A stretch of 22,140 bases of DNA from a virus (Duplodnaviria > Heunggongvirae > Uroviricota > Caudoviricetes). Made by a program: the position numbers and the translations under genes. Location of the stretch: IMG/VR virus record IMGVR_UViG_2579779149_000003, one strand, 5' to 3'. Positions 2,896 to 17,275 of this stretch are shown here, one piece after another (the first letter of the stretch is position 1; the number at the start of each line of letters is the position of its first letter). A model generated the notes under the pieces. That model searched no databases. It had not been told where the DNA came from and saw only the letters and a list, made by a program, of their open reading frames with translations.

Positions 2896-6576
<3,681 letters not shown>

Positions 6577-7122: not shown

Positions 7123-7340
7123 TGTTCATTCCACGGCCAAAAACAGAGAAAGGAAACGACAGAGGCCCAAAAGTTCGTTTTCAGCACCTGTCGTTTCCTT
7201 TCTTTTCAGGGGGTATTTTAAATAAAAACATTAAGTTACGACGAAGAAGAACGGAAACGCCTTAAACCGGAAAATTTTCATAAATAGCGAAAACCCGCGA
7301 GGTCGCCGCCCCGTAGCCTGTCGGATCGCCGGAAAGGACC
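7123..7340 (-). other. cos packaging site (cosB-cosN-cosQ); cosN 12-nt cohesive-end sequence at 7300..7311
   Basis: Reverse complement of 7290..7330 reads ...ACAGGCTACG GGGCGGCGACCT CGCGGGTTTTCGCTATTTATGAAAATTTTCCGG, i.e. the lambda right end joined to the left end with GGGCGGCGACCT intact; the following sequence toward Nu1 matches my recollection of lambda cosB. Confidence 0.85.
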
Positions 7341-8615: not shown

Positions 8616-8653
8616 ACATATAGTGTTTTTTTAACACTGAAAACACTATATGT
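8616..8653. promoter_or_regulatory. Nested palindromic operator-like element in the promoter region of the small-ORF/peptidase operon
   Basis: ACATATAGTGTT (8616..8627) and its exact reverse complement AACACTATATGT (8642..8653), with an internal palindrome AGTGTT-TTTTT-AACACT (8622..8638), 25-60 bp upstream of the ATG at 8591. Confidence 0.4.
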
Positions 8654-11412: not shown

Positions 11413-11628
11413 TTACTCTCCCCGTGCAGCCTTACGCTTGTCTTCTCTGATTTTGAAGTACAGATTTGTCAGATAAGTCAGGAAGCCCAGAACCAGACTC
11501 CCAAGTACACCAATCGCAGCCCACTGTGACGGACTGACCTGATCAAGCCACTGTAAAAACCAGTAGCCAGCACTGCCTGCGGAGGTGCCGTAGGCAATGC
11601 CCGTTGAAATTTTGTCCATGGATTTCAT
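11413..11628 (-). CDS. S: Class II pinholin (phage 21 S21 / EssQ-like, 71 aa, dual-start motif MKSM)
   Basis: [71 protein letters not shown] matches the S21 pinholin: two TM segments and a Met-Lys-Ser-Met dual start. Confidence 0.9.
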
Positions 11629-11788
11629 AGCCTCACCTCCGCAAATAACGGATGGCGTAGTTTTACACTGAGAAATGAAAGGGATTTGAAAAGAAAAAAC
11701 CGCAAAAGCGGGCGAAACGATATATACAGAAAGGAAAGCACTCTATCCAACAAACCACCCACAGTTGATCGGAATAAAAGCAGAGTGC

Positions 11789-11861
11789 TTATGAATGATC
11801 GCCTGCCCGAAGGTTAGTATTTCTGCACAGCAATTTTGCAAAAAAAGGCGATCATTCATAA
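11789..11861. repeat. 16-bp perfect inverted repeat with 41-bp spacer (candidate RNA structure or protein-binding site)
   Basis: TTATGAATGATCGCCT at 11789..11804 and its reverse complement AGGCGATCATTCATAA at 11846..11861. Confidence 0.6.
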
Positions 11862-11920
11862 CTTAAACGTCTTTCAGTCACTCCGGGATTTCCCATCATC
11901 GCAGACTGAAAGACTCTGAC

Positions 11921-11995
<75 letters not shown>

Positions 11996-11998
11996 ATA

Positions 11999-12074
<76 letters not shown>

Positions 12075-12076
12075 AC

Positions 12077-12153
12077 TGGACCGCCACCGGGGACTCGAAC
12101 CTCGCACACTCAACTTAAAGGGTTGACGCTCTTTCCTGATGAGCTAGTGGCGG
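12077..12153 (-). tRNA. tRNA-like gene with atypical anticodon loop CCUUUAA (anticodon UUU by position, C at position 33); identity uncertain
   Basis: Acceptor CCGCCAC/GUGGCGG, D-arm GCUC...GAGC, anticodon stem UCAAC/GUUGA, T-arm CGAGG-UUCGAGU-CCCCG (one mismatch), encoded CCA. Packed 2 nt and 1 nt from neighbouring tRNAs. Confidence 0.45.
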
Positions 12154-12154
12154 T

Positions 12155-12230
12155 TGGTGGCCCTTGCTGGATTTGAACCAGCGACCTGGCGATTATGAGT
12201 CGCTCGCTCTCACCACTGAGCTAAAGGGCC
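12155..12230 (-). tRNA. ileZ: tRNA with anticodon CAU (IleX/IleZ-like tRNA-Ile2, or Met)
   Basis: Reverse complement GGCCCUUUAGCUCAGUGGUGAGAGCGAGCGACUCAUAAUCGCCAGGUCGCUGGUUCAAAUCCAGCAAGGGCCACCA closely resembles E. coli tRNA-Ile2 (ileX) and the ileZ gene of lambdoid prophages; T-arm GCUGG/CCAGC is perfect. Confidence 0.8.
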
Positions 12231-12350
12231 GGGCGCAGGATAATAACGTTACGAAATCAATGTTGCAAGCATTCAAAAATCACCTGGTTAAAAATCACCC
12301 TTATCTCCTCCACCAGCGCATTCACCATGTCTATCCGAGATAAGTGACAC

Positions 12351-12372
12351 AAAAAAACCGCTTGATGCGGGT
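12351..12372 (-). terminator. Weak terminator-like hairpin with U7 on the minus strand (possible tR'-like element of the late promoter region)
   Basis: Minus-strand RNA CCGC-AUCAA-GCGG followed by UUUUUUU (plus strand a-run 12351..12357). The stem is only 4-5 bp. Confidence 0.3.
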
Positions 12373-12419
12373 TTAAGTTGTGTGGCGAAGCGACCACTCT
12401 TAACAGATTAAGATAGTTT

Positions 12420-12449: not shown

Positions 12450-12494
12450 TATCTGTATCCTGTGGCTATTTCTCTTGCGCAAAGGATGCTTTTG

Positions 12495-13373
12495 ATGACG
12501 CAGCAACTCGAAAACATGCCAATAACAGAAATCGAAATTGCCTACGGTGGAGAGGCATACGCAGATAATCAGATCGACGCGAAAACATTAGGCGAAGCCT
12601 TAACCTCTCTTAGTGCCCTGATTGAACACGCCGAAAAAATAATTAATGGCGAAACAGCAGAGCCGAAAGTCAACATCAAGGCAACAAAAGAAGGTTCATT
12701 TACTTTGCTTGTTGCTGTGATGGGGAGCATAAAAACTATTAACGCCCTTGGCCTCGTTGCAGGTGGTGGAGTTGCCGCAGGTGGCGTACTCGGGATAATC
12801 GAATGGCTCAAAGGGCGTAAAATCAGCTCCATTGTCGTCGATGAACAAAAAGATACAGCAGAAATCGAAGTGGATGGTGAGAAGGTTAAATGCAGTAACG
12901 ACATTCAAAAATTAATAACCAGTCCAATCATCCGAAAAGAACTGGATAAATTAATCTATAAACCCCTGCAGACTGAAAAACCATCCACGTTCTCAGTTTC
13001 ACAGCAGAAGCATAAGGTAGTCAGGGTGACGCAAGCTGAAGCAGTAAGTTTTAAAACTGCAAAATCCACCTTTGTCGAGAAAACGCACGTAACGACACGC
13101 CAAGCTAATGTACATTTTGCTAATGTTCGATTCAAGCAAGGCAAAAGCTGGGATATCATCCTGCCAAATGGCGAAGAAGTTAGCGCATCTATGAAAGATG
13201 AGGCTTTTCTTGAACGGGTTGAACACAACCAAGCAGCATTCTGTAAGGGTGATCTTTTTGTTGTAGAACTGACAGAAACAACAAAAGAAACAAATGGCGC
13301 GCTGTCTAAACCACGCTATAGTATTACTAAGGTTATACGCCACAGAGCGGCGGCAGATAGGAAACTACTTTAA
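12495..13373 (+). CDS. Hypothetical membrane-associated protein (about 292 aa), first gene of an AT-rich three-gene cassette
   Basis: ORF open from 12462 (GTG); the preferred start ATG 12495 (MTQQLENMPITEIEIAYGGE...) has AAGGA 9 nt upstream. Central glycine-rich hydrophobic segment SFTLLVAVMGSIKTINALGLVAGGGVAAGGVLGIIEWL flanked by soluble N- and C-terminal regions. No family recognised. Confidence 0.65.
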   Translation: MTQQLENMPITEIEIAYGGEAYADNQIDAKTLGEALTSLSALIEHAEKIINGETAEPKVNIKATKEGSFTLLVAVMGSIKTINALGLVAGGGVAAGGVLGIIEWLKGRKISSIVVDEQKDTAEIEVDGEKVKCSNDIQKLITSPIIRKELDKLIYKPLQTEKPSTFSVSQQKHKVVRVTQAEAVSFKTAKSTFVEKTHVTTRQANVHFANVRFKQGKSWDIILPNGEEVSASMKDEAFLERVEHNQAAFCKGDLFVVELTETTKETNGALSKPRYSITKVIRHRAAADRKLL

Positions 13374-13376
13374 ATC

Positions 13377-13622
13377 ATGTCAATCCTAAGCATTATGCTT
13401 TACATCACTGTATTCATGGCTGTCGCAGCGACGGTCAGATATGCTGTGCTTAGGTTCTTGGTTTGGGTAAAGCCGAATGCGTATATTGAACTAACCTACA
13501 CCGATCCTGAAGGCAGAACCGCTAAAAGGAAAGTCAGCGTTAGAAACGAAAATGACGCAGAAGAGTTGGCGCTACTGCTACGCGAACTCAAAACTCGCAA
13601 CGAAGCAAGTGCAGGAAGGTGA
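13377..13622 (+). CDS. Hypothetical small membrane protein (81 aa, one N-terminal TM helix)
   Basis: MSILSIMLYITVFMAVAATVRYAVLRFLVWV... then a charged tail; starts 3 nt after the stop of the upstream gene. Confidence 0.6.
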   Translation: MSILSIMLYITVFMAVAATVRYAVLRFLVWVKPNAYIELTYTDPEGRTAKRKVSVRNENDAEELALLLRELKTRNEASAGR

Positions 13623-14009
13623 ATGGCGAACACTAAATCCTACCTGGCAATGCAGGCATGGTTTACCACCCTTATCACTGCGGGATTGAATTTCCTTTTT
13701 GACTGGCTTCCTCAATTAGCCTTCTTCAAATCATTGGCGCCTGGAGCTGCTGTCGGCTTATCTCATGTGGTAATTCTTCTTATCGCTTACATAGGTTTGC
13801 CTACGCTTAATGATGTAAGAATGAAAAGGGAAATAAAAACGGCCAGAAAATTCATCACGAACTGCCTGGCCAACCCTAACCTAACACCAGACCAAATTGC
13901 GCACTACAACCAATGTCTTATCGATCTAGACAATAAGCTATTAAAAAACATAAATATTCGTATTGATGCTTTATCTGACGCCGAATCGAAAGCTCAAGCA
14001 AACGAGTAG
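13623..14009 (+). CDS. Hypothetical membrane protein (128 aa, two predicted TM helices)
   Basis: MANTKSYLAMQAWFTTLITAGLNFLFDWLPQLAFFKSLAPGAAVGLSHVVILLIAYIGL... then a soluble tail; the ATG directly abuts the upstream stop (tgaATG). Confidence 0.6.
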   Translation: MANTKSYLAMQAWFTTLITAGLNFLFDWLPQLAFFKSLAPGAAVGLSHVVILLIAYIGLPTLNDVRMKREIKTARKFITNCLANPNLTPDQIAHYNQCLIDLDNKLLKNINIRIDALSDAESKAQANE

Positions 14010-14022
14010 TAACAGTCATAAC

Positions 14023-14382
14023 TTATGATAGAATCAAGCATATACATCCATCAATAAAGCCTAATGCAGTTTGCAGCTCCTTTCTTATAGTTCCATCTGA
14101 GCACCTGCGTTTCTTCGCGATTGAGCGTAGAGAAACACCAATAACAAAGTGAGCTATGAGCAGCTCATATTCCTCTGGTTTATACTTTCGCAACCGAGCC
14201 ACACAACCGTCTATCATGATGCCTTCATCATCATCACACTGGAGACGTGACTTTTTGCCATGTGGCAAAAGCCCCTTGAAGCCCGCTGCTATCGGTTGCC
14301 AATCGACACCGCTATTTTCTGCTGCAGCCCATGCCCCCCAGCGATCTAAAACCTCATACATATCACGCCCCATTACCATCAC
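14023..14382 (-). CDS. Q: Late-gene antiterminator Q (QuuD/Phage_antitermQ-type, about 116-119 aa)
   Basis: MMVMGRDMYEVLDRWGAWAAAENSGVDWQPIAAGFKGLLPHGKKSRLQCDDD...CSDGTIRKELQTALGFIDG aligns by eye with DLP12 QuuD (ERWGAWAA, IAAGFKGL, KSRPQC, CSDG). The start may be the internal ATG at 14373. Confidence 0.85.
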   Translation of the reverse strand: MMVMGRDMYEVLDRWGAWAAAENSGVDWQPIAAGFKGLLPHGKKSRLQCDDDEGIMIDGCVARLRKYKPEEYELLIAHFVIGVSLRSIAKKRRCSDGTIRKELQTALGFIDGCICLILS

Positions 14383-14740
14383 CTCTGATTTCGCAAATCT
14401 TCACGCCCAGTCGCCCACCAGGAACGAGCTGACCGCGCACAATATTGATTTCATCAAACTGCTCGTCGTCTATGAGAAGCCCCGCATGCGTCAGTGCATC
14501 CAGCGGTGCTTTCAGGATATTGTCCAGGTCCCGACGGCGCTTATCCGGCGGCTCTGCAGTAATTTTTATTGCCAGTCTTCCGGACAGGTTTAATTTCAGC
14601 CGCTGCTGGCGAACAATTAGCGCCACATCACGGCGATAACGCTTTCCGGCCTCCGAGATGAAATACGTATTGCCATGACGTCGCCAGTAGGTATTCACCG
14701 TCGGCGGGTAAGGCAAAACAAATTCTATGCGTTCAGTCAT
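14363..14740 (-). CDS. rusA: Holliday-junction resolvase RusA
   Basis: MTERIEFVLPYPPTVNTYWRRHGNTYFISEAGKRYRRDV...PDKRRRDLDNILKAPLDALTHAGLLIDDEQ shows the conserved RusA motifs (PPS/TVN, DxRRRDLDN, DDxQ); typical nin-region position before Q. Confidence 0.9.
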   Translation of the reverse strand: MTERIEFVLPYPPTVNTYWRRHGNTYFISEAGKRYRRDVALIVRQQRLKLNLSGRLAIKITAEPPDKRRRDLDNILKAPLDALTHAGLLIDDEQFDEINIVRGQLVPGGRLGVKICEIRGDGNGA

Positions 14741-16908: not shown

Positions 16909-17064
16909 TTACTCCTCAGGTTCGTAAGCTGTGAAGACAGCGACCTCCGTCTGGCCGGTTCGGATTCGTACCTCGCAGAGGTCTTTCCTCGTTACCAGTG
17001 CCGTCACAATGACGGTTAAACAGATGACGATCAGGGCGATTAACATCGCCTTTTGCTGCTTCAT
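16909..17064 (-). CDS. hokD: Hok-family type I toxin (HokD/RelF-like, 51 aa)
   Basis: From the internal ATG at 17064: MKQQKAMLIALIVICLTVIVTALVTRKDLCEVRIRTGQTEVAVFTAYEPEE, recognised as HokD/RelF. The in-frame upstream extension (ORF from 17121) is probably leader sequence. Confidence 0.85.
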   Translation of the reverse strand: MKQQKAMLIALIVICLTVIVTALVTRKDLCEVRIRTGQTEVAVFTAYEPEE

Positions 17065-17275
17065 AGCCTGCTTCTCCTTGCCTTTCGGCACGTAAGAGGC
17101 TAACCTAGATTTGCCGTTCATAGATTGAGCCTCAGATTAATGTTAAGCGTCTTGCAGGACGCGTAATGTTAACTGGGGCTTTTCTCTATCTGCCTTTGGT
17201 GTTCATGCCTGAGACAGATAGCCTCAAGCACCCGCAGCCATTCTACTTAACTCCCGTTACCTCGCCAATATAAAA

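Follow-up and report, generated by a model that had tools for sequence, protein, structure and literature searches.

The window analysed here is the whole 22,140-nt stretch of the virus record IMGVR_UViG_2579779149_000003, which is part of a Qin-like lambdoid prophage, and the element in question is a pair of long perfect inverted repeats lying between the minus-strand tRNA-Gly gene (11921-11995) and the open reading frame (ORF) of a phage-21-type holin (11413-11628). Our results make it very likely that these repeats are two (A and B) of the three hairpins of a non-coding RNA encoded on the minus strand (11914-11736), and that this structure is selected, strand-specific and part of a tRNA cassette. 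The evidence here is direct, in that the hairpins themselves are observed, are conserved and covary, can be assigned to a strand, are modular and hold a fixed position between tRNAs and terminators. We propose that the hairpins form the structured 3' trailer of an autonomous phage tRNA operon and that this trailer is released as a stable functional RNA; to this account as a whole we give a probability of about 0.5.

An earlier note on this DNA had drawn attention to the two repeats, and both its coordinates and its placement of them were exact in our repeat search. The 16-bp repeat has arms at 11789-11804 and 11846-11861 that are 100% complementary and separated by a 41-nt spacer, and the 11-bp repeat has arms at 11869-11879 and 11904-11914, also 100% complementary, with a spacer of 24 nt. 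A third hairpin, which had been overlooked, adjoins the 16-bp repeat (arms 11736-11744 and 11782-11790). Chance was assessed with 100 dinucleotide-preserving shuffles of the window. Perfect inverted repeats of at least 11 bp with a spacer of 3-60 nt number four in the window as against a mean of 0.31 per shuffle, and the longest repeat in any of the shuffles was 14 bp, so that 16 bp was never attained; both repeats are therefore well beyond chance expectation. Folding of the minus-strand transcript, which the earlier note had suggested as a check, gave -96 kcal/mol for the RNA 11920-11629 (z = -5.3 versus shuffles) and -52.5 kcal/mol for a 141-nt core (z = -4.7). The plus strand of the core folds about as well (z = -5.5), so the relevant strand is not identifiable from the window alone, and it is the relatives that decide.

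The relatives were collected by exact-motif scans of viral and genome collections and by BLAST. In hairpins B and C (26 distinct sequences, 41 pairs) 97.3% of the alignment cells are in standard pairs, versus 32-50% when the partners are slid by one to three columns, and in hairpin A (29 distinct sequences, 15 pairs) 94% are paired, versus 36-56% after sliding. By a shuffle control that is uncorrected for relatedness, which makes the counts of changes on both sides of a pair supportive and not a formal probability, 8 pairs changed on both sides in B and C (attained by 161 of 500 shuffles) with 52 such cells (attained by none of 500), and in A the corresponding figures were 6 of the 15 pairs (2 of 500) and 18 cells (none of 500). 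The slid-partner control and the many independent pair types agree with this result. Four of the pairs with changes on both sides are in the closing stem of B and four are in hairpin C (helices 4-5), where 95-99% of the cells are paired. A pairwise alignment with phage HK639 shows unchanged loop sequences and, in each of the three stems, compensatory substitutions that preserve the pairing.

These relatives also identify the strand. G·U cells outnumber A·C cells by 134 to 10 in B and C and by 57 to 7 in A, and because G·U is so much more frequent than A·C the structure must be selected in the single-stranded, late-sense copy, that is, as RNA and not as a DNA palindrome. Thus, the claim that the repeats would form stem-loops on the late, minus-strand transcript was borne out, and these stem-loops are under selection. 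The alternative that the repeats act at the DNA level, be it as an operator for a dimeric protein, an attachment or recombination site beside the 3' half of tRNA-Gly, a cruciform or a MITE/REP repeat, is suggested by the arms in the window being perfect palindromic DNA, by a 10-bp palindrome (TTTTGCAAAA) within loop B and by the tRNA-Gly of HK639, whose 3' part is identical to the window copy and whose 5' part is degenerate, as at integration sites. The symmetry of duplex DNA, however, predicts something other than the observed ratios of G·U to A·C pairs. In addition, a genome has only 1-3 copies, none of them dispersed and each within a prophage late region, and their orientation to the late genes is fixed. 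We therefore regard a DNA-level element as highly improbable. For the same reasons of copy number, and because prophage late regions account for all the loci examined in detail, a dispersed repeat of the REP, ERIC or MITE kind was rejected.

A protein-coding explanation fails as well. A 38-aa ORF (11743-11859) runs over hairpins B and C, but changes of 1-2 nt in the length of the U-run break its frame among near-identical relatives, and it is therefore not a gene. The region thus combines compensatory stems, strand-specific G·U pairs and no conserved reading frame, as is expected of a structured non-coding RNA, and this RNA explains the recurrent, spurious call of a 'hypothetical protein' over the region in some phage records. 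Neither ARAGORN nor the Rfam tRNA model made a call over 11736-11914, although hairpin B has the length of a tRNA. A promoter within hairpin B (TTGCAA-16 nt-TACTAA), seen by eye, was rejected because its -10 box is without the final T and the promoter scan was silent there.

Hairpin A (11869-11914, minus strand) has an 11-bp lower stem, which is the shorter of the two repeats, a 4-bp upper stem (UGGG/CCCG) and a small loop. Its internal loop (UGCGAUGA / GAGU) is purine-rich and conserved, and when compared by hand only it gave no fit to a canonical kink-turn, box C/D or loop-E motif. Hairpin B (11789-11861, minus strand, 73 nt) is the core module of the family. The 16-bp repeat is its closing stem, of which 14 pairs are in the family consensus, and its interior holds an 8-bp inner hairpin with the loop AAAUUGCUG and a mini-hairpin, CC-UUCG-GG. 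Hairpin C (11736-11790, minus strand) has an 8-bp outer stem (GCACUCUG/UAGAGUGC), two inner stems, the apical loop GUGGGU and a G/U-rich 3' side (GGGUGGUUUGUUGG), and it is followed on its 3' side by an A/U-rich spacer and then by a terminator, which are no more than indirect features of an Hfq-dependent sRNA acting in trans. Our model of the family, R1, scored 136 bits on the minus strand of 11736-11862. The loop and junction sequences UUUUUGCAAAAUUGCUGUG and GGGUGGUUUGUUGG are nearly invariant across genera, an invariance that is partly by construction since the family was gathered with exact motifs in the B, A and C loops; the B loop is variable in locus L208 and in Fels-1.

The earlier note had asked whether the repeats are conserved in related phages, and in many enterobacterial prophages they are. 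A 441-bp query around the repeats is identical in E. coli S51, and BLAST showed the region to be almost the same in phages phi467, vB_EcoM-606R7, vB_EcoS-689R5 and PhiR47_1. The HK639 copy is 75-79% identical and lies between Q and the lysis genes, in a gap for which the record has terminators as its only annotation. Among 5426 complete E. coli genomes the family is present in 536 (about 10%), at 580 places, all of them chromosomal, with a median of one and a maximum of three per genome. It was also found in Shigella flexneri, Enterobacter hormaechei, Citrobacter sedlakii, Yokenella regensburgei and Phytobacter ursingii and in many uncultivated viral contigs, and prophage Fels-1 of Salmonella LT2 has hairpin B alone. 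On the other hand, model R1 was silent in the late leaders of K-12 Qin and of DLP12, the prophage of IpeX, and both were rejected as relatives.

Counts of modules and of neighbours are based on 80 distinct loci anchored on the B-loop motif. All three hairpins are present in 56 of these, B and C in 16, A and B in 5, and B only in 3. The modules are separable and shuffled: B and C may directly follow tRNA-Gly with A missing (for example, L025 and L041), A and B occur without C (L062, L006) or are followed at once by a terminator (L108), and B alone or B with C comes after a protein gene (Fels-1, L084, L004). Beyond these, A is followed by a different long hairpin in L176, and C is found without B in L214 and L223, in the former by itself and ahead of a tRNA. 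L108 also has a second, weak match to the B+C model (5530-5632, plus strand; 32 bits, E of about 2e-5) about 1.1 kb upstream of its main copy, which may be a diverged extra copy. In some members an insertion sequence lies inside hairpin B or hairpin C is replaced by unrelated sequence (L217, at about 2100-2215, and L087), and the hairpin locus is a frequent target of rearrangement.

The hairpins have a constant setting. In every locus examined the element points the same way as the late genes, with a Q-sized ORF or a tRNA array upstream of it and a lysis-sized cassette downstream. A tRNA is directly upstream in 59 of the 80 loci, and a hairpin with a T-run follows within 160 nt downstream in 63 of them, as counted by a simple scan that misses imperfect terminators. 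In the window the array comprises four minus-strand tRNA genes (11921-12230), identified by ARAGORN, by Rfam tRNA matches and by the RefSeq annotation of the identical S51 prophage. In the order of transcription these are a tRNA with a CAU anticodon (12155-12230; tRNA-Ile in RefSeq), tRNA-Lys(UUU) (12077-12153), tRNA-Thr(UGU) (11999-12074) and tRNA-Gly(UCC), and hairpin A starts 6 nt past the 3' end of the last. The hairpins are thus between the last tRNA and the operon terminator, on the same strand, which is where the 3' trailer of a tRNA operon belongs.

Upstream of the tRNAs the promoter scan predicted a sigma-70-type promoter, TTGCAA-17 nt-TATTAT (12240-12268, minus strand), with a start a few bases before the first tRNA (12230). 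This promoter is a shared feature of the family, because in an alignment of 14 diverse loci most have a TTGCA-type -35 box with a TATCAT/TATTAT-type -10 box 17-18 nt on, and then the first tRNA. In divergent loci the similarity starts exactly at the -35 box and the sequence farther upstream differs, and in several of them there is an intrinsic terminator just ahead of the promoter. The window has at this place a weak terminator-like hairpin, CCGC-AUCAA-GCGG followed by U7 (12351-12370, minus strand), read from the sequence and unflagged by the scan because its stem has only four pairs; relatives have stronger terminators there. This hairpin occupies the position of the tR' of a lost or replaced Q-pR' unit. 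Sy et al. (2020, PMC7547250) have mapped, in a Stx2 phage, the start site of a promoter located between tR' and the tRNAs. At the other end of the unit, a second terminator-like hairpin, CCGC-UUUU-GCGG followed by U6 (11694-11713, minus strand), also read from the sequence, lies about 65 nt before the holin start; its stem is too short for it to have been flagged by the scan. At this terminator the stem is 5-6 bp long in close relatives, and in other subfamilies one or two strong terminators are found at this place. Elsewhere, other inserts occupy the slot that separates Q from the lysis genes, namely, cspB/cspF in Qin, nmpC in DLP12 and stx in Shiga-toxin phages. Given the shared onset at the promoter, the fixed context and the differing inserts in the slot, the unit from about 12268 to 11694 behaves as an insertable cassette.

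From this arrangement we infer that the promoter is active, that tRNAs and hairpins are transcribed together and that the product is processed and stable, as we do any action in trans. The unit would be read in the order promoter (12268-12240), four tRNAs, hairpins A, B and C, and intrinsic terminator (about 11713-11694). Since the promoter would be independent of Q, the precursor transcribed in a lysogen would be about 540 nt long, and the host tRNA-processing enzymes RNase P and RNase E would excise the tRNAs from it. The remainder, about 200-230 nt in length, highly structured and with the terminator hairpin at its 3' end, would be the functional product, its conserved loops either forming base pairs with other RNAs or binding a protein; a protein-binding site was also an option in the earlier note. 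In the lytic cycle the hairpins would be within the Q-antiterminated late transcript as well. The best reading of the data is that the trailer acts as an RNA, either in trans, in the manner of StxS and 3'ETS-leuZ, or in cis, in processing or stability.

The alternative closest to this proposal is that the hairpins work in cis only, either as recognition structures for RNase III or RNase E or as protective stem-loops at 5' or 3' ends, with no function in trans. They would set the ends at tRNA excision, shield the last tRNA precursor from 3' exonucleases and shield the downstream lysis mRNA, with its new monophosphate 5' end, from RNase E. The earlier note had likewise offered them as processing sites that release the tRNAs. 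The closeness of hairpin A to the end of tRNA-Gly and the tRNA found directly upstream in most loci are in accord with this. The long regular stems of the hairpins, broken by asymmetric internal loops, resemble the RNase III sites of phage T7; moreover, modules that are separable and shuffled are what is expected of independent hairpin units. However, simple stabilisers do not need UUUUUGCAAAAUUGCUGUG and GGGUGGUUUGUUGG to be near-invariant across genera, and this conservation of the loops far exceeds the needs of a cleavage site. Furthermore, 21 of the 80 loci, for example Fels-1, have no adjacent tRNA, and terminators separate the hairpins from the lysis genes, which means that without Q the hairpins are not on the lysis mRNA. 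Release of the tRNAs is thus weakened as an explanation and is retained as an option, and we consider a purely cis-acting role somewhat doubtful.

Several facts weigh against our own proposal that a functional trailer RNA is released. The account of transcription and processing is drawn wholly from the sequence. The terminators of the window itself are weak, with 4-bp stems, and several genes of the identical S51 prophage, including Q, are marked as frameshifted in its RefSeq record, so the window copy may be decaying. That A, B and C are separate in some loci suits independent cis-acting hairpins as well as one composite RNA, and the 21 loci that lack an adjacent tRNA count here too. Within the window no site complementary to the conserved B loop or to the G/U tract of C was found, and the HK639 record places a terminator between Q and the tRNA.

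The earlier note had also suggested that the hairpins control the timing of holin translation, and they do lie within the 292-nt gap upstream of the holin start. The holin is a class II protein of the phage 21 type with the dual start MKSM (11413-11628, minus strand; Pfam PF04971, E = 1.4e-35), and it is a downstream neighbour outside the element. Four observations argue against this role. First, the terminator-like site at 11713-11694 stands between the hairpins and the holin. Second, the similarity to other S21-type loci (essD, lambda-hybrid phages) stops at about 11659-11665, 30-40 nt upstream of the start; in essD-type loci it covers just the first 100-106 bases of the query. Third, the hairpins occur with first lysis ORFs of differing sizes and with upstream ORFs of 119 to about 280 aa, the annotated Q being 165 aa in HK639 and 271 aa in Fels-1. 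Fourth, K-12 Qin and DLP12 have the same holin family without the hairpins. The unrelated types of Q and holin together with the absence from these two leaders make control of holin translation by the hairpins very unlikely. A separate 10-bp perfect repeat (11578-11587 / 11634-11643) pairs the ribosome-binding region of the holin (GGAGGUG) with codons 14-17 or so and encloses MKSM, and local control of holin translation is more plausible for this repeat than for the upstream hairpins.

Another alternative is that the hairpins control transcription in cis, as a put-like processive antiterminator or as a riboswitch-like setter of late read-through, through the folded RNA or a bound factor. Their position would suit this, in that one or two strong intrinsic terminators follow immediately and then the lysis genes, and the record of HK639 (HM208537) annotates a 'putL-like antiterminator RNA' elsewhere, so that this phage carries both kinds of structured leader RNA. 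The put RNAs of HK022 are about 70 nt long and have two adjacent stem-loops, putL lying directly and putR about 270 nt downstream of an early promoter (PMC9378689), and hairpin B is of similar size. A put RNA renders RNA polymerase resistant to terminators in cis, and mutations in the beta' zinc-binding domain block this effect. Unlike the put RNAs, which are downstream of pL and pR, the hairpins are in the late region after four tRNAs, about 310 nt downstream of the nearest predicted promoter, and hairpin B is one closed, Y-shaped hairpin instead of two adjacent stem-loops. With filters off, the best match of model R1 in HK022 (22000-40751) and HK639 (28000-40500, including the putL-like RNA), which cover the early put regions, had 11.5 bits and E = 0.3, and membership in the put group was therefore rejected. 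In addition, the Q of these phages already handles terminators, and the distance and the sequence between hairpin C and the terminator vary freely, unlike those of a riboswitch expression platform. Control of transcription by the hairpins is thus unlikely.

If the trailer is a functional RNA as we propose, the question is whether it belongs to a known family. With Rfam 15, a scan of the whole window at gathering thresholds gave only the four tRNAs and a sok RNA, and a permissive scan (E up to 10) of 11600-12300 gave no match over the hairpins. The records listed have no annotation over the hairpins besides the occasional 'hypothetical protein', and no sequence similarity to any curated or retrieved RNA was found. 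The literature on HK639 and phi467 that we searched has nothing on the hairpin region, most subscription journals being outside this coverage so that an older description is possible, and a 2025 review of phage small RNAs (sRNAs) mentions neither tRNAs nor holins. We have therefore filed the hairpin RNA as a new family of prophage-encoded structured small RNA and as a member of no named family.

Three kinds of known RNA nevertheless resemble what we propose for the hairpin RNA. StxS is a leader transcript of a prophage late region that is processed by RNase E into a stable regulator (PMC7547250). The hairpin RNA, like StxS and the 6S RNA of lambda, would be a non-coding RNA of the lambdoid Q-lysis leader that is made in lysogens and ends at an intrinsic terminator that polymerase modified by Q can pass. 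It differs in that StxS runs from pR' to tR', upstream of the tRNAs, whereas the hairpin RNA is downstream of them, apparently uses the tRNA promoter, is longer and has three modules; it is set apart from StxS by position and architecture only. The trailer of the glyW-cysT-leuZ tRNA operon of E. coli, 3'ETS-leuZ, is a sponge for sRNAs. Our trailer would share with it an origin from the 3' external spacer of a tRNA operon, an end at the operon terminator and a function as RNA, but 3'ETS-leuZ is short and belongs to the core genome whereas the hairpin trailer is about 200 nt long, is phage-borne and has three conserved hairpins. The tRNA cluster of phage T4 has two small, stable, structured RNAs whose function is unknown, 'species 1' and 'species 2'. 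These, compared here by description, are alike as stable structured RNAs that are transcribed and processed together with phage tRNAs, as we propose for the hairpin RNA, and they differ in coming from a virulent phage.

A listing of Hfq-bound RNAs includes the leuZ trailer, as '3'ESTleuZ' (PMC8550237), and the Pas sRNAs, PasA-D, have been described from prophages of enteropathogenic E. coli (PMC8550237; bioRxiv 10.64898/2026.05.13.724894). These too are prophage sRNAs that had not been annotated, and PasA, PasC and PasD1 are beside the holin/lysozyme operon, with tRNAs and sok nearby. Unlike the hairpin RNA, PasA and PasC are on the minus strand against plus-strand esterase/holin neighbours and PasB is between tail genes. 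The printed fragment of PasA is unrelated to the hairpin RNA, and membership was rejected for the PasB, PasA and PasC loci of E2348/69 (L124-L126) because model R1 had no match there and strand and position differ.

We suggest, tentatively, that the family is a new class of modular trailer RNA of phage tRNA operons that is made constitutively in lysogens from the tRNA promoter and affects, in trans, the host or competing phages. One possibility is a regulator or sponge that works through its invariant loops, that is, AAAUUGCUG in B and GUGGGU with the G/U-rich side of C. Alternatively, it might be a decoy or partner for tRNA-targeting factors, delivered together with the phage Ile, Lys, Thr and Gly tRNAs; a candidate defence gene adjoins the tRNA cassette. 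Working sRNAs are known to arise from prophage late leaders, as StxS does, and trailers of tRNAs can act as sponges, and the hairpin RNA would join both ideas. A widespread, strongly structured RNA that rides with phage tRNA genes in about one-tenth of complete E. coli genomes and in Shigella, Fels-1 and Enterobacter, and that is absent from Rfam and from the genome annotations searched, raises the question of what else tRNA cassettes carry, and its covariation-backed structure and a laboratory-friendly carrier, HK639, make this directly testable.

Some features of the tRNA array and its surroundings were observed in the course of this work. The tRNA-Lys(UUU) scored far lower on the tRNA model than its neighbours (44 versus 65-72 bits), and in relatives its slot holds odd or unassignable tRNAs such as Phe(AAA), Arg(UCU) or one of undetermined anticodon, so this position appears to be a fast-evolving one. 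The phage tRNA-Gly(UCC) has 100% identity over 77 bases with a chromosomal tRNA-Gly gene of the genomes listed, and 5421 of the 5426 genomes had some match to the query. In HK639 its 3' part is identical and its 5' part degenerate. This tRNA may have been captured from the host, or the gene may be a recombination or integration joint.

Farther upstream on the minus strand are the genes for RusA (14363-14740) and the Q antiterminator (14023-14382; PF06530), and downstream of the hairpins the order on this strand is the terminator-like hairpin, the holin, a DUF1327 protein, lysozyme and Rz. Upstream of the tRNA promoter, along with the weak terminator-like hairpin at 12351-12370, there is a remnant of 36-46 aa annotated as 'antiterminator' (about 12288-12398), which had no match in the neighbouring ORFs of relatives, Pfam or PHROGs. 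In its make-up the late leader looks like a mosaic of two Q regions. Three convergent plus-strand ORFs of 303, 81 and 128 aa (12462-14009) lie between Q and the tRNA cassette. All three matched PHROGs of unknown function and had no Pfam hit, and the 303-aa protein matched the PADLOC candidate defence family PDC-S42 (E = 3.3e-53), so this segment looks like a candidate defence insert in the late leader. At 17059-17233 (minus strand) there is a full-length match to the sok antitoxin RNA (Rfam RF01794, 110 bits, E = 1.4e-24), and a hokD toxin gene is annotated close to sok in the identical S51 prophage; this is a hok/sok-type type I toxin-antitoxin locus within the prophage. Two more perfect inverted repeats were found in the window. 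One, of 16 bp (7147-7162 / 7188-7203), is followed by a T-run on the minus strand and has the look of a terminator, and the other, of 14 bp (8616-8629 / 8640-8653; ACATATAGTGTTTT / AAAACACTATATGT), looks intergenic and resembles an operator.

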